A stretch of 64,000 bases of DNA from Defluviitaleaceae bacterium (lineage in GTDB: Bacteria; Bacillota; Clostridia; Lachnospirales; WRAX01): positions 4,775 to 68,774 of the forward strand of contig WRBJ01000005.1 in the NCBI GenBank assembly GCA_009784615.1. The letters run 5' to 3'. The notes below the pieces were generated by a model. The model worked only from the letters and a program-made list of their open reading frames with translations, was not told the origin of the DNA and searched no databases. This document shows, in pieces, positions 349 to 41,026 of the stretch (position 1 is the stretch's first letter; every line of letters begins with the position of its first letter). Both the position numbers and the translations under genes were made by a program.

Positions 349-1632
349 ATGCCCGCAAACAGTGAGCTAGTAACCACCATTGGGCTGATTGAAAAGGAAA
401 AAGGCATTGACAAAGAACAGCTTTTTGAAGCAATAGAATTTTCGCTTTTATCAGCTTGCAAAAAGCATTTTGGAACCAGCGAAAATATTCGTGCAACTAT
501 CGACAGAACAACAGGCGAAATTAAGGTTTTGGCACAGAAAACTATTGTTGATGAAGTGGAAAATAAGGTGTTGGAAATTTCTTTGGCAGACGCAAAGGAA
601 TTAAGCCTTGAGTATAATTTAGGTGATATTGTTGATGTGGTGGTAACACCAAAAGAATTTGGGCGTGTTTCTGCCCAAACCGCAAAACAGGTTGTTGTAC
701 AAAAACTGCGTGAAGCTGAGCGTAATATGATTATAGGCGAGTATAAAGACCGTGAGCTAAAGCTGGTCTCGGGCGTGGTAGAGCGTATAGAAAAACGCAA
801 TGTATATATAGCACAAGGCAAAACCGAGCTTATAATGCTACCCGTAGAGCAAATGCCAGGCGAAGATTATTTTCAAGGTCAACGCCTAAAGGTTGTTGTT
901 ATGGATGTGCGTGAAGGCAACCGTGGCGGACCTATGATAAGCGTATCACGTGCGCATCCAGAGCTTGTTGCGAGACTTTTTGAACAAGAAGTACCAGAAA
1001 TTGGCGATGGAACAATTGCAATAAAAGCCGTGGCACGTGAGGCGGGCTTTAGGACGAAAATTGCCGTTAGCTCTACAAATGAAGATGTTGATGCTGTCGG
1101 CTCTTGCGTTGGTGCAAATGGTCAACGTGTAAACACGATTGTAGATGAACTAAATGGAGAAAAAATTGACATTATCAACCATTCTGCCGACCCACGTGAA
1201 TTTATTGCCGCAAGCCTTTCGCCCGCCGCTGTGCTGGCTGTACGAATTGAAGAAAGCGGAAAGATGGCAAAAATTGTAGTACCCGACAGCCAATTATCGC
1301 TTGCTATCGGACGTGAAGGTCAAAATGCACGTCTAGCGGCAAAATTGACGGGTTATCGTATTGATATTAAATCGCAAAATAAAGCCGAAGAAGAAAATTT
1401 TGTAGAGCCACAAGATTATTTGGATTATAAAACAGAAAAAGACGATTCTGTAAGCGTAAGCGAATATGCAGAAGCCGCCGCCGAATTTTACGAATACAGC
1501 AATGAAGACGAATATTACGACGACGAATATGACGATGAAGAATATTACGACGATGAAGAATATTACGACGACGAATATGACGATGAAGAATACGAACAAG
1601 CCGAAAAGCCAGAAGGTGATACCGATAAATAA
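349..1632 (+). CDS. nusA: transcription termination/antitermination factor NusA with an acidic Tyr/Asp/Glu C-terminal tail
   Basis: GGAGGT at 336-341 favours ATG 349. NusA-like S1/KH sequence (GREGQNARLAAKLTGYRIDIK). Canonical nusA-ylxR-ylxQ-infB-rbfA context. Confidence 0.95.
   Translation: MPANSELVTTIGLIEKEKGIDKEQLFEAIEFSLLSACKKHFGTSENIRATIDRTTGEIKVLAQKTIVDEVENKVLEISLADAKELSLEYNLGDIVDVVVTPKEFGRVSAQTAKQVVVQKLREAERNMIIGEYKDRELKLVSGVVERIEKRNVYIAQGKTELIMLPVEQMPGEDYFQGQRLKVVVMDVREGNRGGPMISVSRAHPELVARLFEQEVPEIGDGTIAIKAVAREAGFRTKIAVSSTNEDVDAVGSCVGANGQRVNTIVDELNGEKIDIINHSADPREFIAASLSPAAVLAVRIEESGKMAKIVVPDSQLSLAIGREGQNARLAAKLTGYRIDIKSQNKAEEENFVEPQDYLDYKTEKDDSVSVSEYAEAAAEFYEYSNEDEYYDDEYDDEEYYDDEEYYDDEYDDEEYEQAEKPEGDTDK
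1510..1592 (+). repeat. direct repeat inside the nusA 3' end (identical 35-nt unit at 1510-1544 and 1558-1592, 48-nt period)
   Basis: GAATATTACGACGACGAATATGACGATGAAGAATA occurs twice. It encodes the EYYDDEYDDEEY repeats. Confidence 0.9.
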
Positions 1633-1909
1633 AACAAAAGGCATTGCAGGTTCTAAAAAAGGAAATACAAGCGAAAGACGATGTGTTGGTTGCAGGCAAA
1701 TGGTTGATAAAAGAGAACTTGTGCGTATTGTACGTAACACAGACGGCGATTTCTCTATAGACGAAACAAAAAAAGCCGCCGGACGTGGCGCATATCTTTG
1801 TAAAAACGCCGATTGCGTAGCCGCCGCAATTAAAAATCGTGGCCTAGATAGGTCTTTTAAAGGAAAAGTGCCTTCATATATTTATGACGGGATTGCAGGT
1901 AAAATTTAA
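1583..1909 (+). CDS. ylxR: YlxR/RnpM (DUF448) family RNA-binding protein; start codon uncertain
   Basis: RRCVGCR and GRGAYLC motifs and position between nusA and ylxQ. There is no ATG/GTG/TTG between the nusA stop (1632) and the CVGC motif. The nearest in-frame ATG is 1583, inside nusA. Confidence 0.75.
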   Translation: MKNTNKPKSQKVIPINKTKGIAGSKKGNTSERRCVGCRQMVDKRELVRIVRNTDGDFSIDETKKAAGRGAYLCKNADCVAAAIKNRGLDRSFKGKVPSYIYDGIAGKI

Positions 1910-2250
1910 TGAATAATACAAACGAAAAGCGTATTTTGTCTATGCTTAGCTTGGCAAAAAAGGCAGGTAAAATAATAACGGGTGAAGATGGCTGTGTTAA
2001 AGCTATACAAAAAGATAATGCAAAATTGGTTTTGGTTGCCACAGACGCATCCGACAACACAAAAAAGAAATTTAACGACAAAACCAAATTTTATAATGTG
2101 CCTATACACAGCATATTTACAAAGGAGATGGTATCGGCAAATATAGGTTTGCAAAACCGAGCCACAATCGTAATTACTGACGAAGGCTTCGGTTCAAAAA
2201 TTGAAGATTTGATTGTGAAAGGGTGGACAAATGGCGAAGAAACGCATTAA
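1909..2250 (+). CDS. ylxQ: L7Ae/L30e-family RNA-binding protein YlxQ
   Basis: [16 protein letters not shown] and LVLVATDAS motifs. The ATG overlaps the ylxR stop (TAATG). Conserved position upstream of infB. Confidence 0.85.
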
Positions 2251-5029
2251 CGAAATAGCCAAAGATTTAGGGGTAACATCAAAGGAAATAATAGGCTTTT
2301 TACCCCAAGTAAACATAGAAGGAAAAACAACACATTCTCATAGCCTAGAGGGTGCTGAAATTCAAAAGGTTATGGCGCATTTTGGCGAAAAACCAGAGAA
2401 AATAGAAAAGCCTATGGAAAAAGCTCCAAAGGCTGATATTGTTGTGGAAAAACCAAAAGAGGAAAAACCTCAACAACCTCAACAACCAAAAACAGAACAT
2501 ATTAAAGGTAGCGAGCAACGCCCGCCACGTTTAGACGAAAACGGCAACCCAATACCAAGAAAACCACGCCCACTAGGCGCAGACGGCAAACCATTACCTC
2601 GCCCTGTACGCTACGACGAAAACGGCAATCCAATCCCATGCAAACCACGCCCACTAGGTGCTGATGGCAAGCCTTTGCCACGCTTGGATGCAAATGGCAA
2701 ACCATTGCCAAGAAAACCACGCCCACTAGGCGCAGACGGCAAACCATTACCTCGCCAAGACAGACCGCAGGGTGATAGACCCCGTGGCGACCGTCCGCAA
2801 TACGGCGACAGACCACGCCAACAAGGCGACAGACCACAAGGGCAACGTGACAGACAGTTTGGCGACCGCCCACCACGCCCGCAGGGTGATAGACCACCAC
2901 GCCCACAAGGCGACCGTCCGCAATACGGCGACAGACCAAGACCACAAGGCGACAGACCACAATACGGAAACAACCGTCCACAAGGACAAGGTGGACAACG
3001 TCAAGACTGGGGCAAAAAAGACGGCGGCAACCGCTCGCAAGGCGGCGGATTTAAACAGGATATTCCTGCTGTAGGCGGCGGACGCTCTGGCGGCACTTTC
3101 GGCAAAGGCAAAACCAACGACAAAAAAACAGAGCAGCCACCAGATAAACACGGCAGAAGGCAAAAATTGGAAGCAGGCAAAAAAGACCGCCGACACGACC
3201 CAAGAACCGACGACCGTGAAAAGGCTTTAGAACTACAAAGAAAAACCAAACAACAACAGGCTTCTAACGAGCCAAAGGTTATACAAATTCCTACCACGCT
3301 TACGCTTAAAGAGCTAGCGGAAGTAATGAACAAACAAGGTGCAGAGCTTGTTAAAAACCTATTTAAAAAAGGCGAAATGATAACGCTAACGCAAGAGATT
3401 TCTTTTGAAAAAGCTGAAGAAATTGCCATCGAATATAATATTTTGGCGGAACTAAAGGTTGAAGTTGACATTTTAGAAGAAGTTTTTGCAGAAGAAGACG
3501 AAAGCGAAGAAATGCTTCAAGAACGCCCGCCGGTTGTGGTTGTTATGGGACACGTTGACCACGGCAAAACATCGCTTTTGGATGCTATACGCAAAACAGA
3601 TGTGGTAGAAGGCGAAGCAGGCGGCATAACACAACACATAGGTGCATACACCGTTACAATAAACGACCGCCCAATCACTTTCCTAGACACACCAGGACAC
3701 GAGGCGTTTACAGCTATGCGTATGCGTGGCGCACAGGTTACAGATATTGCCATACTGGTAGTAGCCGCAGACGATGGCGTAATGCCGCAAACCATAGAAG
3801 CCATAAGCCATGCCAAAGCCGCAGGTGTCGAAATAATCGTTGCCATCAACAAAATAGACAAACCAGCCGCAGACCCATCACGTGTTATGCAAGAGCTTAC
3901 AGAATACGAGCTTGTCGCAGAAGAATACGGCGGGCAAACCATTTGCGCCCCTGTTTCTGCCAAAACACGTGATGGATTGGAAAATCTGCTAGAAATGGTC
4001 TTGCTTGTAACCGATATGAAGGAATATAAAGCAAACCCCAACAAAAACGCACGTGGCACGGTTATTGAAGCCCAGCTTGATAAAGGCAGAGGACCAGTTG
4101 CGACAGTTTTGGTAAAATCTGGCACACTTGAAATTGGGCAACCAATCGTGGCTGGCACAGCCCACGGTCGTGTACGTGCTATGCTCAATGATAAAGGACA
4201 AAAGGTAACAAGCGCAGGACCTTCCGTACCTGTAGAAATCCTTGGTTTAACAAGCGTTCCTTCTGTCGGTGACTTGTTCTTTGCCGCTAAAAGCGAAAAA
4301 GAAGCACGATACGTTGCCGAAAATATAATAAGCAAACAACGTGTCAAAATGCTTGAGGAAACACCGCAAAAGGTGTCGCTTGACGACCTGTTTAACCAAA
4401 TCCAGGCGGGCAAGGTTAAAGAGCTTAATCTTATCATCAAAGCAGACGTTGGCGGCTCTGTTGAAGCGGTTAAAGCCAGTCTTGAAAAACTTTCCAATAA
4501 CGAAGTGCGCATACGCACAATTTTGGGCGGTGTTGGTGCTGTTACAGAAAGTGACGTAATGCTTGCGTCTGCTTCAAATGCGATTATAATAGGCTTTAAC
4601 GTGCGACCAGAACCTGCGGCAAAAGCCATAGCAGAAGAACAATTGGTTGACATACGCCTATATCGTGTAATCTATAATGCAATTGATGACGTAAAAGCAG
4701 CGATGATTGGTATGCTAGACCCAATTTTTGAAGAAAAAATTATAGGGCATGCCACAATACGCCAAATTTTCAAAGCGTCAGGCATTGGCACTATCGGTGG
4801 CGCATATGTTACCGACGGCAAAATAACACGCTCAGCACAGGTGCGCATATTGCGTGATAATATTGTTGTTTACGAAGGAACACTTGACACACTTCGCCGC
4901 TTCAAAGACGATGTGCGAGAGGTGTTGACCAACTACGAATGTGGTTTGGTGATAAGCAAATTTAACGACATCAAAGAAGGCGATGTGGTTGAAGCTTTTG
5001 TAATGGAAGAAATAAAGCGTACATCATAG
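2231..5029 (+). CDS. infB: translation initiation factor IF-2
   Basis: G-domain motifs [24 protein letters not shown]. 932 aa with a Pro/Arg/Gly-rich repetitive N-terminal region. Confidence 0.97.
2520..2990 (+). repeat. in-frame low-complexity repeats in the infB N-terminal region ([21 protein letters not shown] units, then [10 protein letters not shown] units)
   Basis: Repeated peptide units are visible in the translation. The same DNA generates spurious long ORFs on the opposite strand and in the other frames. Confidence 0.85.
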
Positions 5030-8893: not shown

Positions 8894-8899
8894 TAAGAG

Positions 8900-9076
8900 T
8901 TATAAAAGACGGCTTGCTAGGTTTGCACGCTGTTTTTCTTTTTCGGCTTCTAAAAAAATATCGTCTAATGAGATTATAATGCAGTTTTCGCACATACCCA
9001 ACGAATTTATTTCTATAGTGCTAAAACAGCATTGGTAGTGCGTGTTGTAGACGCAAAATGCATTTTCGCATTGCAT
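8900..9076 (-). CDS. 58-aa Cys-rich small protein (MQCENAFCVYNTHYQCCFSTIEINSLGMCENC...), DUF1540-like Cys spacing
   Basis: ATG at 9076 is preceded by GAAAGGTGG plus 10 nt. C-x4-C-x7-CC-x11-C-x2-C pattern. The track ORF 8900-9220 is an upstream extension through the leader. Confidence 0.55.
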   Translation of the reverse strand: MQCENAFCVYNTHYQCCFSTIEINSLGMCENCIIISLDDIFLEAEKEKQRANLASRLL

Positions 9077-9262
9077 AAAAAAATACCACCTTTCAGGTCT
9101 TTTTAAATGTTGAAAGATTTGCTTGACAAATAAGACCTGATGTGATAATATACACTCAAGCCTCCTTTGGGCTGAAGATGCGCTTGTTTGGGTTCTGACT
9201 CTGCAAATAGTGTGACCCAAACAAGCGTTTTTCTTATGACTTCAGCCTTTGAACACCCCTCG
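9077..9262 (-). ncRNA. copy 1 of a conserved structured leader of about 190 nt (unclassified cis-regulatory RNA candidate)
   Basis: Homologous to 29995-30190. On the minus strand, P1 is GGCTGAAG/CTTCAGCC (9240-9247 with 9170-9177). P2 is a 13-bp stem (9181-9193 with 9215-9227). Alternative stems involve 9132-9140. Confidence 0.6.
9123..9151 (+). promoter_or_regulatory. consensus promoter antisense to leader copy 1 (TTGACA-17 bp-TAATAT, TG-extended)
   Basis: TTGACA at 9123-9128, 17-bp spacer, TGaTAATAT with the -10 at 9146-9151. The same element is conserved in copy 2 on the opposite strand. Confidence 0.5.
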
Positions 9263-9268
9263 ACACTG

Positions 9269-9297
9269 ATTATATCTTATTGGTTGGTGTTTGTCAA
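9269..9297 (-). promoter_or_regulatory. consensus sigma-A-type promoter of leader copy 1 (TTGACA-17 bp-TATAAT) with upstream A-tract
   Basis: The minus strand reads AAAAAAATCCCTTGACA-17-TATAAT (plus coordinates: -35 at 9292-9297, -10 at 9269-9274). Confidence 0.65.
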
Positions 9298-9339
9298 GGG
9301 ATTTTTTTGGTTTGGTGGAGTTTTTTGTCAAATTGGCAG

Positions 9340-9367
9340 GTAGGGACACAATATATTGTGTCCCTAC
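9340..9367. repeat. perfect 28-bp palindrome (GTAGGGACACAATATATTGTGTCCCTAC)
   Basis: An 11-bp stem plus a self-complementary ATATAT centre, lying between the dacB-like stop (9376) and module copy 1. No adjacent U-tract on either strand. Confidence 0.8.
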
Positions 9368-9375
9368 GGTTATAT

Positions 9376-10809
9376 TTAGCGGTATTTGTACGATTTTGAC
9401 ATACGGGATTTGCGGTAGATGTTGCGGCGGTTTTTTCTGCGGCGGGTGAAGCGTAGAAATTTTATTATGGCGGCGGTTATTAGCAGTGATGTGGCTATTG
9501 CGATAATGTAAAGGAAAGGGCCTGGGGTTGTTAGCCAGTTTGGCAATGGGATTGGGTCGTTGGTGTTGTAGATGATGTTTGCGATGTTTTGTTGGATGTG
9601 GGTGGTGGAAAGGCTTGTTAGGTCGTTTTGGTTTAGGGCGTTGCCTTCTCTGGCGGTGCGTAGTTCTGTTTCGTGTATTATGCGGTCGCCCAAGGTTAGG
9701 CTAATTCTGCCGACAATGGTATTTTCTGCTATTGGGGCTGTTAGTCTGTTTGGTAGGGTGTAGTTTATTTGGATTTCTTGCGGGTCTATTGTGTTTGGCA
9801 ATGGCAAGATGGCGTTATTTGCGGCATAGACTGGCATATGGTCGATTATTATTGTGCCTTGGTCGGAGCGTTGCACCAAATCTACGAAAAACGAAAAGTC
9901 GCTTGCGGTGTAAAAATTGTGGGTTTCAAATTGCGAAAAGCCATAATTCATTAGACGTATTGTGTCGGCAAAGATTATTTCACGTCTGGGAGCCGACATT
10001 ACAACGGAAATTAGCTCTATACCATCACGCTTGCCGTAGGTTACCAATGTGTGTCCTGCGGGGGTTGTCCAGCCTGTTTTACCGCCGACGATTATTGGTG
10101 AAAATTGGGGCATTGTTGGGCGTACCAGCAGGTTTGTGTTGTCTATTATGCGTGGCTCTGGCTGTAGTTCTGTTGGGTGGATTATGAAGCGTGGCGTGTT
10201 TATTACTTCTACAAATACATCGTGGCGGATGGCTTCACGCATTATTAGGTGCATATCGTATAGGGTTGTTACGTGGTTTGGGTCGTGCAAGCCGTGGGCG
10301 TTTGTGAAATTGGTGTTTACGGCACCTAGTTCGTGCGCACGGTTGGTCATCATCTGTGCAAATGTTTCCATATCGCCTGCTACAAATTCTGCAATGGCGT
10401 TTGAAACGTCGTTTGCGCTGGGTAACATAATGGCGTATAGAGCTTGTAAGACGGTTAAGGTTTCGCTTGGGCTCATATAAATATGGCTGGAATTGCGAGG
10501 GATGCTAAAGACGGCATCACGTGAATGGAAAATTCTGTCGGTTAGGTCTGCGCCGCTTTCGATTAGAAGTAGGGCAGTCATTACCTTTGTCATACTGGCG
10601 GGATAAGTTGGGGCGTTAATGTCGCCGTTTTCGTGCAAAATAACGCCTGTTGCGGCGCATACTATTATGCCGAAAGGGGCTTCTAAATTTAGTAGCGGTG
10701 GAGCGGCGGCTTCTTCGTTATCGTCGGCAAAAATTGTAAAGGGCGCGAAAATGCCGCTTGCAATGGCTATTATCAAAAAATATATTAAAATTTTGCTTAT
10801 TTTTCGCAT
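9376..10809 (-). CDS. D-alanyl-D-alanine carboxypeptidase (peptidase S11, low-molecular-weight PBP) with a C-terminal membrane anchor
   Basis: SMTK (SxxK), SAN (SxN) and KTG motifs, an N-terminal signal/TM segment and a basic C-terminal tail. Confidence 0.88.
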   Translation of the reverse strand: MRKISKILIYFLIIAIASGIFAPFTIFADDNEEAAAPPLLNLEAPFGIIVCAATGVILHENGDINAPTYPASMTKVMTALLLIESGADLTDRIFHSRDAVFSIPRNSSHIYMSPSETLTVLQALYAIMLPSANDVSNAIAEFVAGDMETFAQMMTNRAHELGAVNTNFTNAHGLHDPNHVTTLYDMHLIMREAIRHDVFVEVINTPRFIIHPTELQPEPRIIDNTNLLVRPTMPQFSPIIVGGKTGWTTPAGHTLVTYGKRDGIELISVVMSAPRREIIFADTIRLMNYGFSQFETHNFYTASDFSFFVDLVQRSDQGTIIIDHMPVYAANNAILPLPNTIDPQEIQINYTLPNRLTAPIAENTIVGRISLTLGDRIIHETELRTAREGNALNQNDLTSLSTTHIQQNIANIIYNTNDPIPLPNWLTTPGPFLYIIAIATSLLITAAIIKFLRFTRRRKNRRNIYRKSRMSKSYKYR

Positions 10810-21594: not shown

Positions 21595-21642
21595 GGTTTG
21601 GTTTGGTACTATATATGTAAAACAATTAACGGAGGAATAGAT

Positions 21643-22944
21643 ATGGGATTGATAAGAGCGGCAATTGGTGCGGCAACAGGAACAATGGCAGACCAGTGGT
21701 TAGAGTTTTTTTACGCAGATGCTATGCCTAATAATGTGTTGGTTACACGCGGCATACGACAAACATCCGGTCGTGGGCAAAACCGTGGTAATGATAATAT
21801 TATTTCTAACGGTAGCGGCATCGCCGTTGCGGACGGGCAATGTATGATGATAGTTCAGGATGGGCGTATTTTGGATGTTTGTGCCGAACCGGGGCGGTAT
21901 ACTTTTGAACAAGGAAGCTCGCCAAGCCTTTTCTCGGGTTCTTTGGGCGAAAATATTATGGGTACTTTTAAAACAATGGCAAGCAGATTTGCCCACGCAG
22001 GCGAAACTGGAAAAGACCAGCGTGTATATTATTTTAATATACGTGAACTTGTTGGGAATAAATTCGGCACAGCAACGCCTGTACCTTTTAGAATCGTTGA
22101 CACAAATATAGGTCTTGATTTGGATACCGCCGTACGTTGCAATGGTATGTATTCTTTTAGAATGACCGACCCATTATTGTTCTATACAAATATATCAGGT
22201 AATGTGACACAAGATTATACGATAGAACAAATTGACCAGCAAATGAAAAGCGAGTTTTTATCGGCTTTGCAACCTGCTTTCGCACGTCTTTCTGCTATGG
22301 GTATGCGTCCATCGCAAATTCCTGCACATACGCAAGAATTATCGCAGTTTCTTAACGAAGCGTTAAGTGAAAAATGGGGCGGCTTGCGTGGTATGTCCGT
22401 TATTTCTGTGGCAATAAATTCTGTATCTTTGCCGCCAGAAGATGACGATATGATTAAGCAATTGCAACGCAAGGCTGTTATGCGTGACCCGGGTATGGCT
22501 GGTGCGGCCATTGTGGCGGCACAAGCGGATGCTATGCGAGGTGCGGCAGAAAACCCAAATGGTGCTATGATGGGCTTTATGGGGCTTAATATGGCACAAC
22601 AAGCGGGCGGAATGAATGCGCAAGAGCTGTTAATGCAGGGTCAACAACAGCAACAGCAAAGAGCGGCAGAAGCGGCACAGGCAGCCGCTATATCACCATC
22701 AGTTGATGTAGCTGGCGGCTGGGCTTGTGCGTGCGGTGCAACAAACACAGGTCGTTTTTGTGCTGATTGCGGCACGGCAAAGCCTGTTGTCGAAAATTGG
22801 ACTTGCACCTGCGGTACAACCAATGCGGGACGTTTTTGTGGCGAATGTGGTTCGCAACGTCCAGAAAACACCGATTGGACTTGCAATTGCGGAGCAGTCA
22901 ACACGGGGCGTTTTTGCGGAGAATGCGGGATGGCTCGCAACTAG
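21643..22944 (+). CDS. SPFH-domain protein (YdjI/COG4260-like) with a Q-rich linker and three C-terminal zinc-ribbon repeats
   Basis: MGLIRAAIGAATGTMADQWLEFF N-terminus typical of YdjI-like SPFH proteins. GGAGG lies 7 nt upstream of ATG 21643. Three repeats of W-x-C-x-CG-x2-N-xGRFC-x2-CG. Confidence 0.7.
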   Translation: MGLIRAAIGAATGTMADQWLEFFYADAMPNNVLVTRGIRQTSGRGQNRGNDNIISNGSGIAVADGQCMMIVQDGRILDVCAEPGRYTFEQGSSPSLFSGSLGENIMGTFKTMASRFAHAGETGKDQRVYYFNIRELVGNKFGTATPVPFRIVDTNIGLDLDTAVRCNGMYSFRMTDPLLFYTNISGNVTQDYTIEQIDQQMKSEFLSALQPAFARLSAMGMRPSQIPAHTQELSQFLNEALSEKWGGLRGMSVISVAINSVSLPPEDDDMIKQLQRKAVMRDPGMAGAAIVAAQADAMRGAAENPNGAMMGFMGLNMAQQAGGMNAQELLMQGQQQQQQRAAEAAQAAAISPSVDVAGGWACACGATNTGRFCADCGTAKPVVENWTCTCGTTNAGRFCGECGSQRPENTDWTCNCGAVNTGRFCGECGMARN

Positions 22945-29844: not shown

Positions 29845-29959
29845 AACAACCGCTTCCTTAATGGGTTTGACCCCTTTTTATAAGGAAGTATTTACATTTT
29901 ATGGTACTTTTATACATTAATCAGTTTGACAAGATTATACAAAAAATAAAAAAAAGCCC

Positions 29960-29988
29960 TTGACAAGAGCCAAACAATAGTATACAAT
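29960..29988 (+). promoter_or_regulatory. sigma-A-type promoter of leader copy 2 (TTGACA-17 bp-TACAAT) with upstream A-tract
   Basis: AAAAAAAAGCCCTTGACA at 29960-29965, 17-bp spacer, TACAAT at 29983-29988. Confidence 0.65.
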
Positions 29989-29994
29989 CAATAT

Positions 29995-30190
29995 CGGGAG
30001 TATTTCAAAGGACTTGGTGCATAAGCAATATGCTTGTTGGGTGAAACACAACGTCAAAGTACCCACCCAACAAGCAACCACTAAGTCCTCAGACCTAAGG
30101 TGATATTATCACATTTAGGTCTACTTGTCAAGCACATCTTTAGCGATGTGCCAAAAACAAAAATCTGACCTGAAAGGTGGTATTTTTTTA
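29995..30190 (+). ncRNA. copy 2 of the conserved structured leader (unclassified cis-regulatory RNA candidate)
   Basis: P1 pairs 30010-30019 with 30079-30088. P2 pairs 30032-30043 with 30064-30075. Alternative stems are 30091-30098/30115-30122 and 30114-30121/30167-30174. The SD lies at 30173-30180. Confidence 0.6.
30103..30131 (-). promoter_or_regulatory. consensus promoter antisense to leader copy 2 (TTGACA-17 bp-TAATAT)
   Basis: The minus strand reads TTGACA (30131-30126), a 17-bp spacer, then TGaTAATAT (-10 at 30108-30103). Same architecture as 9123-9151. Confidence 0.5.
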
Positions 30191-30532
30191 ATGAACAGGG
30201 ATTTTAGGTACATGCAAGATGTTGGCACAAGGACAATTTGCAAACAAAACATGATGTTTTTGCCGCAAGATTTAACCGACCATTTGCGGCTGGTAGAAGG
30301 CTCTTTGTTTTCTTTATTACCTATGGGTAGCATAGTGATATTGCGGTTGTTAAAGGAAGATGACGACAAACATCAACATTATTTTACAACATCTATGGAT
30401 TTGTTAGGCAGAATTGAAATACCCAAAGTATTAAGAGAAGCTATGGGTTGGGATTGTAAGGAAAGATATGACATATCTGTTTATTATGTTGATGACGAGA
30501 TGGTTATTTTACAAAAATATGTTAATAAATAA
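30191..30532 (+). CDS. 113-aa protein with a C-terminal SpoVT/AbrB-type swapped-hairpin domain and a possible second degenerate copy at the N-terminus
   Basis: LGRIEIPKVLREAMGWDCKERYDISVYYVDDEMVILQK matches the AbrB/MazE/SpoVT pattern. ATG 30191 is preceded by GAAAGGTGG. The track ORF from 30125 runs through the leader. Confidence 0.6.
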   Translation: MNRDFRYMQDVGTRTICKQNMMFLPQDLTDHLRLVEGSLFSLLPMGSIVILRLLKEDDDKHQHYFTTSMDLLGRIEIPKVLREAMGWDCKERYDISVYYVDDEMVILQKYVNK

Positions 30533-30535
30533 AAC

Positions 30536-30562
30536 AAGGGCGACCAAAACACGGTCGCCCTT
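30536..30562. terminator. bidirectional intrinsic terminator
   Basis: AAGGGCGACC-AAAACAC-GGTCGCCCTT followed by TCCTTTAT. Confidence 0.75.
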
Positions 30563-40480: not shown

Positions 40481-41026
40481 TTGAAGGCAACAGGTATAGT
40501 TAGGCGCATAGACGACCTTGGAAGGGTGGTGATTCCAAAAGAAATCCGCCGCACTTTGCGTATACGTGAAGGCGACCCTTTAGAGATTTTTACTGACCGA
40601 GAAGGCGAGATAATATTGAAAAAATATTCACCAATTGGCGAACTTGGCAATTTTGCTAAAGAGTATACCGAAAGTTTGGCATCAAGTAGCGGTCATATCA
40701 CTTGTATTGTGGATAAAGACCAAATTATTGCCGTGTCGGGTGGAGCTAAAAAAGAGCTGTTTGAAAAGCACATCAGCCCACAGCTGGAAAAAGCAATAAA
40801 TTCACGTAGCACGCAGACGGCGGCACGTGGCGAATCCAATTTTGTGCCGATTTTAGAGGACGACCCCGAAGAATTATATGAAAACCAAATGATAACGCCG
40901 ATAATGGCTGAAGGTGACGTATTGGGCGCAATATTGTTTTTGTCTCCTGATAAAAAAATGGGCGAATTAGAAACAAAATTGGCACAAACCGCCGCAGGTT
41001 TTATTGGCAAGCAAATGGAGCAATAA
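40481..41026 (+). CDS. spoVT: stage V sporulation protein T (AbrB-family N-terminal domain plus GAF-like domain), TTG start
   Basis: (M)KATGIVRRIDDLGRVVIPKEIRRTLRIREGDPLEIF is the canonical SpoVT N-terminus. AAGGAGG lies 7 nt upstream of TTG 40481. Confidence 0.92.
   Translation: MKATGIVRRIDDLGRVVIPKEIRRTLRIREGDPLEIFTDREGEIILKKYSPIGELGNFAKEYTESLASSSGHITCIVDKDQIIAVSGGAKKELFEKHISPQLEKAINSRSTQTAARGESNFVPILEDDPEELYENQMITPIMAEGDVLGAILFLSPDKKMGELETKLAQTAAGFIGKQMEQ

Follow-up and report, generated by a model that had tools for sequence, protein, structure and literature searches.

The question raised by this locus is what a non-coding module of about 260 bp does that occurs twice, in inverted orientation, before two small open reading frames (ORFs) in a 64,000-nt stretch of DNA (hereafter the window) from a Defluviitaleaceae bacterium. 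An earlier note, made from the letters of the sequence, had described the two copies as look-alikes and treated them as leaders only. Global alignment of the reverse complement of 9077-9335 (copy A) with 29921-30190 (copy B) gave 199 identical columns and 83.6% identity over ungapped columns. The alignment score was 99, as compared with -4.9 ± 6.0 for shuffled sequences (maximum 12, n = 300), which bears out the inverted pair. The 150 nt outside either end of the module aligned no better than shuffles, the flanks being unrelated; therefore the similarity is confined to the module, ending at the start codons, and the copies are not part of a larger duplication, a possibility that the note had raised. 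The sequence GACCTGAAAGGTGGTATTTTTTT was found exactly twice in the window, at 9077-9099 (-) and 30167-30189 (+), with 0 occurrences expected by chance, and a 24-nt block 5' of both ATGs is identical between the copies. The module is strongly structured (folding z = -5.4 and -6.3 for the two window copies), and the proposal that it is non-coding and conserved at the nucleic-acid level was supported. The indels are not restricted to the 1-2 nt given in the note, and include gaps of 12 nt and 9 nt. No third copy was present in the 64-kb window. One candidate at 40950-41013, a weak covariance-model match inside an ORF, was rejected as chance. The setting of the modules is chromosomal (nusA/infB/truB/ribF region, PBP, Ham1; a BofC-like and a gltD-like gene around copy B), and neither an integrase nor a transposase was present among the neighbouring genes, which are housekeeping genes.

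Both copies carry the near-consensus sense promoter as the note had stated it (TTGACA-17-TATAAT and TTGACA-17-TACAAT), with an A-tract upstream in each. The leaders predicted from these promoters agree in length with the ~190 nt expected earlier. In copy A the leader folds into a helix P1 enclosing a GC-rich hairpin P2, followed by a hairpin P3, an architecture common to 27/27 members of the family described below. The features read in the sense direction are as follows.

9269..9297, (-) strand: copy A sense promoter, -35 TTGACA at 9297-9292, 17-nt spacer, -10 TATAAT at 9274-9269; 12/12 hexamer matches, predicted transcription start at about 9262
9077..9262, (-) strand: copy A sense leader, about 186 nt, which folds
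9247-9240 with 9177-9170, (-) strand: copy A P1, from the fold
9227-9215 with 9193-9181, (-) strand: copy A P2, from the fold
9163-9133, (-) strand: copy A P3, from the fold
9129-9121, (-) strand: copy A box TTGTCAAGC
9090-9086, (-) strand: copy A SD, GGTGG; U-run at 9083-9077
29960..29988, (+) strand: copy B sense promoter, TTGACA-17-TACAAT; 11/12 hexamer matches, predicted transcription start at about 29995
29995..30190, (+) strand: copy B sense leader, about 196 nt, which folds
30010-30019 with 30079-30088, (+) strand: copy B P1, from the fold
30031-30043 with 30064-30076, (+) strand: copy B P2, from the fold
30091-30122, (+) strand: copy B P3, from the fold
30125-30133, (+) strand: copy B box; U-run at 30183-30189

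The reading of the module as a leader only had missed a second promoter. In a consensus scan, the conserved blocks ATATTATCACAT and TTGTCAAGCA were found to match a sigma-70 promoter of the opposite strand, as its -10 and -35 elements, and this promoter converges with the sense one. The putative antisense features of both copies are given below.

9123..9151, (+) strand: copy A antisense promoter, -35 TTGACA at 9123-9128, 17-nt spacer, -10 TAATAT at 9146-9151; 10/12 hexamer matches plus a TG extended -10
9158..9235, (+) strand: copy A predicted antisense RNA, about 76-78 nt
30103..30131, (-) strand: copy B antisense promoter, -35 TTGACA at 30131-30126, 17-nt spacer, -10 TAATAT at 30108-30103; 10/12 hexamer matches plus TG
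30023..30096, (-) strand: copy B predicted antisense RNA, about 72-74 nt, with UAUUGCUU as its end, 3' of the P2 hairpin

The RNA predicted for copy A has a 5' tail whose complement is found in the P1 3' arm and at the base of the P3 5' arm. On the antisense strand of this copy, the P2 hairpin (9181-9227) is followed by TTTTTCTT (9228-9235), an arrangement that resembles an intrinsic terminator. The corresponding U-tract of copy B, UAUUGCUU, is weak, weaker than that of copy A, and a second terminator-like hairpin with T8 lies at 29971-29955, overlapping the sense -35. Across cassettes, the antisense RNA has a predicted length of 68-77 nt, and the 8 nt after P2 hold a mean of 4.56 T on the antisense strand versus 0.67 on the sense strand. 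Read on the antisense strand, the A-run that lies 5' of the main hairpin would be the U-tract of the predicted terminator. The presence of both an antisense promoter and an antisense terminator therefore points to a pair formed by a sense leader and an antisense RNA, and not to a leader only. The antisense promoter might be the promoter of the upstream gene in copy B only. As a general explanation this was rejected, because the upstream gene is co-oriented with the module in copy A and in most relatives.

The family comprises 27 distinct members, i.e. the two window copies plus 25 from contigs of termite-gut metagenomes; all relatives for which placement was possible belong to the Defluviitaleaceae. 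A sense promoter with at least 10/12 consensus matches was found in 27/27 members, which share descent, so that family counts are not independent events. A convergent antisense promoter with at least 9.5/12 matches, most often TTGACA-18-TATAAT, was likewise found in 27/27, a conservation of -35 and -10 that is partly built in, since most relatives were found by a pattern fixing AGGTCT, TTGTCAAGC and TATTAT; the search did not force the spacing, nor the first T of the -10, nor the members that came from the covariance model. The sense and antisense -10 elements lie 90-151 nt apart in the 27 members. Those found without the box pattern still have a promoter-like site despite sequence change (TTGCAA-17-TATAAT, TTGACA-17-TATTAT, TTGACA-18-TAAGAT), and the function of the antisense promoter appears to survive such change. 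Among the unrelated pattern matches of the metagenome scan, several sit, by eye, at ordinary opposite-strand promoter positions: the match in L010 lies upstream of a tRNA-like sequence, and those in L025, L034 and L044 upstream of an RBS plus ATG.

Searches beyond the termite-gut contigs gave little. A scan of genome contigs for TTGTCAAGC-N20-50-CCTGAAAGGTGG returned only 3 chance matches (Gemmataceae, Bacteroidales and Saprospiraceae), and its anchor was wrong because the RBS block is not conserved in the family; the identical 24-nt block of the window copies, absent from most relatives, is not a family signature. One true match, L065, was obtained in viral contigs. Its neighbours are housekeeping genes, its scores equal those of L012 at both sites, and it looks like the same sequence as L012; the other 40 viral-contig matches were noise. 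By blastn, there were 0 matches against the 72,556 plasmids of PLSDB, and only a 51-nt promoter-like match against phages. The lack of a known RNA family, suspected from the start, was confirmed with Rfam 15: at the gathering threshold there were 0 matches, both for the whole window and for 9 related loci. With permissive settings, the best matches on the window copies were all sub-threshold (PyrR, 23.9 bits vs 54; SpF51, 21.7 vs 50; fstAT, 15.1 vs 72), and that to PyrR aligned only a generic hairpin and U-run as terminator, on the antisense (+) strand of copy A.

The helices differ in the strand on which their conservation is seen. The P1 arms are unrelated between members and complementary within each member. 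Their covariation was assessed by an alignment-free comparison of cognate and non-cognate arms, as MAFFT and the model R1 fail to align them; cognate duplexes had a mean of -12.0 kcal/mol vs -8.2 for non-cognate ones (permutation p = 2e-5). P1 cannot form in the terminated antisense RNA, and therefore the sense leader itself would be under structural selection. In the P3 columns sense G·U pairs are frequent and A·C is nearly absent (AU:12/GU:10, GU:12/AU:10, GU:9/AU:8/GC:5), with a wobble tally of 31 G·U vs 1 C·A; P3 appears to be kept through G·U pairs, which are functional in the sense RNA only. P2 shows compensatory pairs (CG:14/UA:6 and UA:12/CG:5), and its rare mismatches are A·C, i.e. 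G·U on the antisense strand. Termite subfamily 1 has TATTATA in a paired state and subfamily 2 has it in a 15-nt loop, and it is conserved in both. In most members the box pairs, by eye, with a downstream CUUGACA as a further hairpin, P4.

When the P3 5' arm was removed from the fold, an alternative helix (attenuator/anti-SD) was obtained before the start codon of copy A, and a counterpart is present in copy B.

9077..9147, (-) strand: copy A alternative helix, UAUCAC (9147-9142) and UCAGGUCUU (9140-9132) with AAGACCUGA (9101-9093) and GUGGUA (9089-9084)
30102..30189, (+) strand: copy B alternative helix, 30102-30110 and 30114-30121 with 30167-30174 and 30176-30184

In copy A this helix stands directly 5' of U7 (9083-9077), which is followed by the ATG, and reaches -16.5 kcal/mol vs -5.3 ± 2.1 for shuffles (0/200 as good). 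In copy B it runs into the U-run at 30183-30189, covers the SD and reaches -14.0 kcal/mol vs -5.4 ± 2.3 (0/200 as good). In both window copies the alternative helix excludes P3 and vice versa, being formed by the P3 3' strand with the pre-ATG block. By eye, the pre-ATG block of copy B closely resembles the P3 5' arm. The identity of the 24-nt block in the window copies would be explained because this block is the 3' strand of the alternative terminator/anti-SD helix. A similar helix with a U-run was found in L013, L057, L015, L045, L049, L033 and L051_10445, whereas the largest termite subfamily (GGAUAUAGGAAAGGAG type) is without a U-run and its alternative helix is no better than shuffles. 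For the alternative helix, the cognate vs non-cognate comparison gave only p = 0.04. This helix closes a loop of 30-55 nt, atypical of an efficient intrinsic terminator, and the U-run could be a mere AU-rich spacer between SD and ATG. In a model of SD accessibility, blocking the antisense target changed the value from 0.33 to 0.26 (p = 0.07), no clear change, and therefore translational control is not claimed from thermodynamics.

The note's statement that each copy precedes an unrelated ORF holds inside the window, where the two proteins are unrelated to each other, but not across the family, whose usual downstream gene is a small SpoVT/AbrB-type one; copy A is the exception. The regions downstream of the modules are as follows.

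8900..9076, (-) strand: copy A downstream ORF, 58 aa, six Cys
30191..30532, (+) strand: copy B downstream ORF, 113 aa
30536..30562, both strands: bidirectional terminator AAGGGCGACC...GGTCGCCCTT after the copy B ORF

No homologue beyond itself and no Pfam or NCBIfam match was found for the 58-aa protein. The description of the 113-aa protein as AbrB-type is sub-threshold for this protein itself (TIGR01439, E = 4e-4, 19.9 bits vs a cut-off of 28.3; no Pfam match) and is supported through its homologues. A word-indexed search with either downstream protein found only the query, whereas an exhaustive search with the 113-aa protein found 36 distant relatives. Its identity to family members is 28-45%; 6/10 of these match PF04014 (best E = 5e-10) and 2 match MraZ, and the 113-aa protein appears to be a divergent member of a SpoVT/AbrB-like family of ~100-130 aa. 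Many of the downstream SpoVT/AbrB-type proteins carry a CPxCG knuckle. One member has no downstream ORF at all and another precedes a 220-aa secreted protein. A terminator of the GGGCGACC/GGTCGCCC type also lies 3' of the downstream gene in most related cassettes.

Taken together, the module is probably an antisense-RNA-driven attenuation cassette resembling those of pT181, pIP501 and RnaG-icsA, but chromosomal and multi-copy. This reading builds on elements that the sequences and their comparison show, namely the family, both promoters, the strand-asymmetric terminator, the covariation of P1, the sense-only wobbles of P3 and the alternative helix of the window copies; from these we infer production of the antisense RNA, its binding to the leader and a repressive effect. 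The cassette would be self-contained and transcribed from both strands. A strong sigma-70 promoter would yield an mRNA whose ~190-nt leader contains P1 around P2, P3, the short hairpin P4 and the SD. An equally strong antisense promoter, with its -10 in the P3 loop and its -35 in the invariant TTGTCAAGC box, would yield an RNA of ~70-78 nt that starts with a single-stranded 5' tail and terminates itself at the P2 hairpin and its U-tract. P3 would be the antiterminator. Pairing of the antisense RNA with the nascent leader would strip away the P3 5' arm, and the freed 3' strand would pair with the pre-ATG block. In the window copies, the resulting interrupted helix of 15-17 bp would contain the SD, with U7 immediately after it, and would end transcription ahead of the ORF or, if it did not, occlude the ribosome-binding site. 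Direct interference between the promoters may be a further effect of convergent transcription.

The same anatomy might belong to a sense-only cis-regulatory leader, in which P1-P4 would form a sensor for a protein (e.g. the encoded AbrB-type protein) or a small ligand and toggle P3 against the terminator/anti-SD helix, the antisense "promoter" being incidental to an AT-rich loop and to a UUGUCAAGC motif needed by the RNA. The P1 covariation, the maintenance of P3 by sense-only G·U pairs, the strong folding (z = -5.4 and -6.3) and the P4 formed in most members by the box and downstream CUUGACA (by eye) would suit such a leader, and a choice between antiterminator and terminator works with any factor that destabilises P3. 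However, opposite-strand hexamers at the correct spacing and with at least 9.5/12 matches occur in 27/27 members, and TATTATA is kept whether paired or in a loop, which points to a constraint at the DNA level. Moreover, an altered box becomes another -35-like sequence, TTGCAA. For the A-run 5' of P2, no role is evident in the sense RNA, but on the opposite strand it reads as a U-tract. No riboswitch or leader of Rfam was matched. We consider a sense-only leader rather unlikely.

The likeness of the copies could also be due to descent and gene conversion, if they were paralogous gene cassettes, multiplied and relocated within these genomes, or a mobile repeat of the MITE/REP kind with a promoter on it. 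The module is indeed multi-copy (up to 3 in 15 kb in L012 and 2 in 1.4 kb in L015), its presence differs among close relatives (L004 is without cassette A; in L006 a cassette lies between xseA and xseB that L008 and L009 do not have), REP-like palindromes are often near, and conservation extends to the terminator 3' of the downstream gene. Nevertheless, terminal inverted repeats or target-site duplications were not noticed, by eye only, at the module ends, the only internal inverted pair, of 8 nt, being the sense -35 and the antisense box. The module faces an ORF with SD and ATG in register in every copy, apart from one without an ORF; the window copies share the leader only, neither ORF nor flanks, and their neighbours are housekeeping genes without integrase or transposase. 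The compensatory changes in P1 and P2 and the wobble-only change in P3 argue for selection on structure and not for mere recent copying. Mobility, which as the whole explanation is quite improbable, would account for the spread of the cassettes and not for their anatomy, and is compatible with the attenuation model. An addiction module like those of type I toxin-antitoxin systems, with the antisense RNA as an antitoxin that represses a harmful small protein, would share with these cassettes the convergent sense/antisense pair 5' of a very small ORF and the multi-copy, variably present, cassette-like occurrence, and the fold of the downstream proteins is annotated as "MazE antitoxin" (PF04014). 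But these proteins are of the soluble, DNA-binding SpoVT/AbrB type or the Cys-rich 58-mer, not short hydrophobic membrane peptides; one downstream gene encodes the 220-aa secreted protein, one copy is ORF-less, and the sole resemblance in Rfam is to fstAT, at about 15 bits vs a threshold of 72. Such an addiction module is highly improbable.

Attenuation mediated by an antisense RNA, from convergent promoters, is an established mechanism in pT181, pIP501, pAMβ1 and RnaG/icsA (PMC2879508, PMC3753616). In systems of the pT181/pIP501 type, the choice falls on the terminator when the antisense RNA pairs with the upstream portion of the leader during its synthesis (PMC3753616; PMC2879508). As in pT181 RNAI/II-repC, pIP501 RNAIII-repR and pAMβ1, the leader studied here holds a convergent promoter for a short self-terminating antisense RNA (predicted here), and it would likewise fold either as an antiterminator or as a terminator just 5' of the RBS. 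All the pieces, as predicted elements, are present in the window copies in the same order; the mutual exclusion of the helices that characterises pT181 and pIP501 is seen in both window copies and about 7 other members, but not in the main termite subfamily. Unlike those systems, the modules are chromosomal, stand among housekeeping genes without a rep gene, occur in several copies with divergent P1 and tail sequences, and precede a gene for a small AbrB-type protein. They show no sequence or Rfam homology to them and no blastn match in 72,556 plasmids, the terminator helix closes a large loop, and one large subfamily has no U-run. The module would hence work like the pT181/pIP501 systems without being a member of them.

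RnaG of Shigella flexneri controls icsA in two ways, by transcriptional interference and by inducing, as an antisense RNA, an intrinsic terminator within the growing mRNA (PMC2879508). The likeness lies in a strong, convergent antisense promoter inside the leader of a non-replication gene, but RnaG is 450 nt long, single-copy, encoded on a Gram-negative virulence plasmid and without homology to the module, whereas the predicted RNA of the module, of about 75 nt, is one of a chromosomal family with several copies. RNAII of pMV158 (copG-repB) consists of a 5' tail, a terminator hairpin and a U-stretch (PMC4485353). The predicted RNA shares this build, in that the tail is single-stranded and the one hairpin GC-rich, with the U-stretch 3' of it, and its target is likewise an untranslated region forming the mirror-image hairpin. 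The pMV158 circuit also includes a very small DNA-binding repressor gene (PMC4485353); in the module, however, the small DNA-binding protein would be the regulated product and not the co-regulator of a rep gene. RNAII, of 48 nt, acts on repB translation in a plasmid system and has no homology to the module. With Firmicutes leaders (riboswitches, T-boxes, ribosomal-protein leaders, PyrR) the module shares a long, structured leader and, in the window copies, mutually exclusive helices that would act as antiterminator and terminator; unlike them, it reaches no Rfam threshold, has no evident core resembling a ligand pocket and contains a conserved embedded antisense promoter.

What would differ here is the chromosomal, multi-copy use of antisense attenuation, a mechanism already known in kind. 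It is well established in the copy control of plasmids and for a few single genes, and is the basis of engineered RNA regulators of transcription. It is doubtful, although conceivable, that each AbrB-type paralogue has a private antisense RNA, so that the cassettes form a diversified library of mutually orthogonal RNA switches, autonomous, movable and bistable; specificity would then come from the fast-evolving P1 arm, 5' tail and P2 loop, with the promoter and terminator scaffold fixed. Equally conceivable but doubtful is a sense leader that responds to a signal as well, the antisense RNA then being a second input. The work defines, in an uncultured lineage of the termite gut, an RNA family absent from Rfam, and offers a concrete and testable explanation for the identical 24-nt block of the window copies. 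If the proposed mechanism is true, this lineage would possess a chromosomal family with many copies per genome, one scaffold and divergent recognition segments, each guarding a small DNA-binding regulator; attenuation would then be used as a general, reusable gene-control cassette and would be a source of candidate orthogonal parts.

The end-to-end alignment of the reverse complement of 9077-9335 (copy A) with 29921-30190 (copy B) contained 199 identical columns (83.6% of those without gaps) and scored 99, as compared with -4.9 ± 6.0 (maximum 12) for 300 shuffles. This confirms the inverted end-to-end duplication of the module described in the earlier note. As to the larger duplicated segment that the same note had named as a refuting case, the 150 nt outside each module end were no more alike between the copies than shuffled sequence. 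Folding against shuffles gave z = -5.4 and -6.3 for the two copies, and the 23-mer GACCTGAAAGGTGGTATTTTTTT occurred exactly twice in the window (0 expected), each time directly 5' of a start codon. No third copy was found in the window by repeat, pattern and covariance-model searches. The two sense promoters reported before were recovered by the consensus scan (TTGACA-17-TATAAT and TTGACA-17-TACAAT), as were the downstream ORFs, a 58-aa Cys-rich protein after copy A and a 113-aa protein after copy B.

The window is chromosomal, with large ORFs in a nusA/infB/truB/ribF-type arrangement (putative, by arrangement), and the window genes scanned include a D-Ala-D-Ala carboxypeptidase, a Ham1-type gene, Asp23 and a BofC-like protein. 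A perfect palindrome, GTAGGGACACAATATATTGTGTCCCTAC, is located at 9340-9367, upstream of copy A. Short in-frame tandem repeats were observed in two window ORFs: 15-nt units at 1504-1596 (ORF 1466-1909), acidic and D/E/Y-rich-looking when read from the DNA, and 46-80-nt units at 2524-2993, in the N-terminal part of the 932-aa ORF 2231-5029, which is taken to be a putative IF2. Inside ORF 21598-22944, three tandem 78-nt units (22718-22928) seem, from the DNA, to code for repeats that are rich in Cys and resemble zinc ribbons.

Protein searches with the two downstream ORFs returned 'MAG: Defluviitaleaceae bacterium' as the sole database identity, and related Defluviitaleaceae contigs were reached via synteny of the neighbouring carboxypeptidase. 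In the closest relative (L004, carboxypeptidase 66% identical) the carboxypeptidase and Ham1 genes abut without the cassette (L004 2600-2610); hence, the ~480-bp stretch 8894-9375, which comprises the palindrome, copy A and the 58-aa ORF, was either inserted here or deleted in L004. Contig L006 carries a diverged copy 5' of a 60-aa MazE/AbrB-type ORF; this cassette sits between xseA and xseB, at a site that is empty in L008 and L009. The metagenome collection was scanned with the pattern TATTAT-N4-15-AGGTCT-N1-4-TTGTCAAGC, obtained from three copies. Of the 55 loci obtained, about 20 were true members, all of which came from termite-gut samples; several unrelated matches lay, by eye, at ordinary-promoter sites on the other strand, for example ahead of a tRNA-like sequence or ahead of an RBS and ATG. 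The covariance model R1 added more diverged copies within loci already collected, and the family totals 27 distinct members. Cassettes cluster (up to three in 15 kb, two in 1.4 kb) and neighbour housekeeping genes (thiamin pyrophosphokinase, IMPDH, oxidoreductases).

The Rfam check suggested earlier matched no family, either for the window copies or for the relatives. No matches were obtained by blastn against 72,556 plasmids, and against phages nothing beyond one 51-nt promoter-like match. Two family members (9686-9815 and 3370-3494) are present in L065 (IMGVR_UViG_2820537337_000003), from the IMG/VR viral listing, which, given equal scores, is probably the same sequence as L012. Since the scanned L012 neighbours, thiamin pyrophosphokinase and IMPDH, are housekeeping genes, this viral call seems doubtful. 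A REP-like GC-rich palindrome, GTAGGGGCGGGCATTGCCCGTCCC(AGTCCGACAG), adjoins many cassettes in the termite-gut relatives (L006 7743-7960, with a called 71-aa ORF between two inverted palindromes; L011 ~3930; L012 ~2560; L029 ~430; L030 ~1357; L051 ~5236) and is absent in that form from the window.

Most members precede one of two types of protein. Type 1 (~60-75 aa) has a SpoVT/AbrB domain, several above the PF04014 threshold, and a C-terminal CPxCG knuckle; type 2 (~100-130 aa) is AbrB-like. The window 113-aa protein belongs to type 2 (28-45% identical to family members), and an exhaustive search with it yielded 36 relatives. Six of ten members of the type 2 family matched PF04014 and two matched MraZ, so that the AbrB-type label given earlier to the 113-aa protein is supported through its relatives. 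No homologue of the Cys-rich 58-mer was found in database searches, and the other exceptions downstream are a secreted protein of 220 aa, a protein of 59 aa and a single copy that has a terminator but lacks an ORF. A conserved terminator (GGGCGACC, 4-8 nt, GGTCGCCC, T-run) is common to copy B (30536-30562) and termite cassettes, where it follows the ORFs in L006, L011, L030, L046, L051, L053 and L059. In L041 (~1200-1320, minus strand) and L024 (~1750-1870, minus strand) the SD (AAAGGAGAGTGG) and U-run are present with no obvious long ORF, and a hairpin, GCATTTATCA...TGATAAGATGC, stands instead. In L031 (7672-7851, minus strand) a second ORF of 59 aa, with its own SD and no Pfam match, directly follows the AbrB-type ORF.

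Anatomy of the module common to all members, in sense-strand order.
1, A-tract, then the sense promoter (at least 10/12, all members)
2, variable 5' segment (one subfamily has an additional hairpin here)
3, helix P1, its sequence wholly different between lineages
4, 5' internal loop, A-rich
5, helix P2, GC-rich, 10-13 bp stem, typically GTGCTTGCC / GGCAAGCAC, loop ~20 nt
6, P1 3' arm
7, P3 hairpin, TATTATA in the loop
8, box TTGTCAAGC, able to form helix P4 by pairing with a CTTGACA that lies downstream (by eye)
9, SD, then start codon

On the opposite strand, TTGTCAAGCA and ATATTATCACAT become TGCTTGACAA...ATGTGATAATAT, a -35 TTGACA, a 17-nt spacer and TAATAT with TG before it. The consensus scanner placed these promoters convergent with the sense promoters:
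9123-9151, plus strand, antisense promoter of copy A
30131-30103, minus strand, antisense promoter of copy B
That these conserved blocks of the earlier note match a convergent antisense promoter had been overlooked. With the limits that the members share descent and that the search pattern itself prescribed the box, the 3' arm of P3 and some of the -10, the antisense promoter scored at least 9.5/12 in every member, always at the box and P3 loop, TTGACA-18-TATAAT being the commonest form. A changed box is still -35-like (TTGCAA), the -10 variants (TATAAT, TATTAT, TAAGAT, TAATAT) keep T1, A2 and T6 constant, and TATTATA is kept both where paired and where in the loop. In a divergent subtype (L012 2641-2765, minus strand; L029 144-238, plus strand) the box is TTTGCAACA and the antisense -35 TTGCAA; the sense transcript of the L012 copy lacks an ORF, meets a terminator ~45 nt past the box and would be a stand-alone RNA of ~190 nt.

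The two strands carry different marks of selection, read here too from members of common descent and with the 3' arm of P3 preset by the search pattern. The 8 nt after P2 contain on average 4.56 T on the antisense strand versus 0.67 on the sense strand; this T-run, on the antisense strand only, indicates a terminator and a predicted antisense RNA of 68-77 nt. The rare P2 mismatches are A·C in sense, equivalent to G·U in antisense. Because part of P1 is located past the antisense terminator, this helix cannot form in the antisense RNA; its arms covary between members, and cognate duplexes are more stable than non-cognate ones (-12.0 versus -8.2 kcal/mol, permutation p = 2e-5). In P3 nearly all changes are A↔G opposite U or C↔U opposite G, which are sense-only wobble pairs (31 G·U versus 1 C·A; column counts include AU:12/GU:10 and GU:12/AU:10). 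Copy B also has a terminator-like hairpin with T8 (29955-29971, minus strand) overlapping the sense promoter -35, which could serve as back-up for its weak antisense terminator.

The 3' part of each leader was folded without the P3 5' arm, the state expected with antisense RNA bound. In the predicted folds the 3' strand of P3 is paired with the block before the ATG:
copy A, UAUCAC + UCAGGUCUU (9147-9132) with AAGACCUGA + GUGGUA (9101-9084), then U7 (9083-9077) and directly AUG
copy B, 30102-30121 with 30167-30184, then a U-run
The energies were -16.5 (copy A) and -14.0 kcal/mol (copy B), against -5.3 ± 2 for shuffles (0/200 as good), and the SD is inside the helix. By eye, the pre-ATG block is much like the P3 5' arm, as expected of two strands competing for one partner. 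Under this folding model the identical 24-nt block would be explained as a strand of the alternative helix. The same helix and U-run were found in about seven others (L013, L057, L015, L045, L049, L033, L051_10445). In the large termite subfamily with GGAUAUAGGAAAGGAG the U-run is absent and the helix is no better than chance; cognate versus non-cognate helices gave p = 0.04. No clear change was seen with a thermodynamic SD-accessibility model.

A convergently transcribed leader/antisense pair is the best-supported reading, its parts and their conservation being shown at the level of sequence. P3 would act as antiterminator in the sense leader, and pairing of the antisense RNA would strip its 5' arm, so that the alternative helix would lead to termination at U7 or to a masked SD; promoter interference may contribute. 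Antisense transcription and binding to the leader are candidate steps, and repression is the putative outcome. Rival readings are a leader that acts as a sensor on the sense strand alone, ordinary paralogous or mobile cassettes, and a module akin to type I toxin-antitoxin systems. The module would work like the countertranscript attenuators of plasmids pT181, pIP501 and pAMβ1 (PMC3753616, PMC2879508) and RnaG/icsA (PMC2879508), and the predicted antisense RNA has the same 5'-tail, terminator-hairpin and U-stretch build as pMV158 RNAII (PMC4485353).

Judged by homology, the module is outside every known family, and its putative mechanism belongs to a known kind. The novelty lies in the setting, which is chromosomal, multi-copy and cassette-like, varies in presence between close relatives and is paired with small AbrB-type regulators. 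Also new is the apparent divergence of the recognition segments (P1 arm, tail and P2 loop) on a fixed scaffold. In the alignment the window copies differ most in the recognition segment, which suggests that they may be private, non-cross-reacting sense/antisense pairs.
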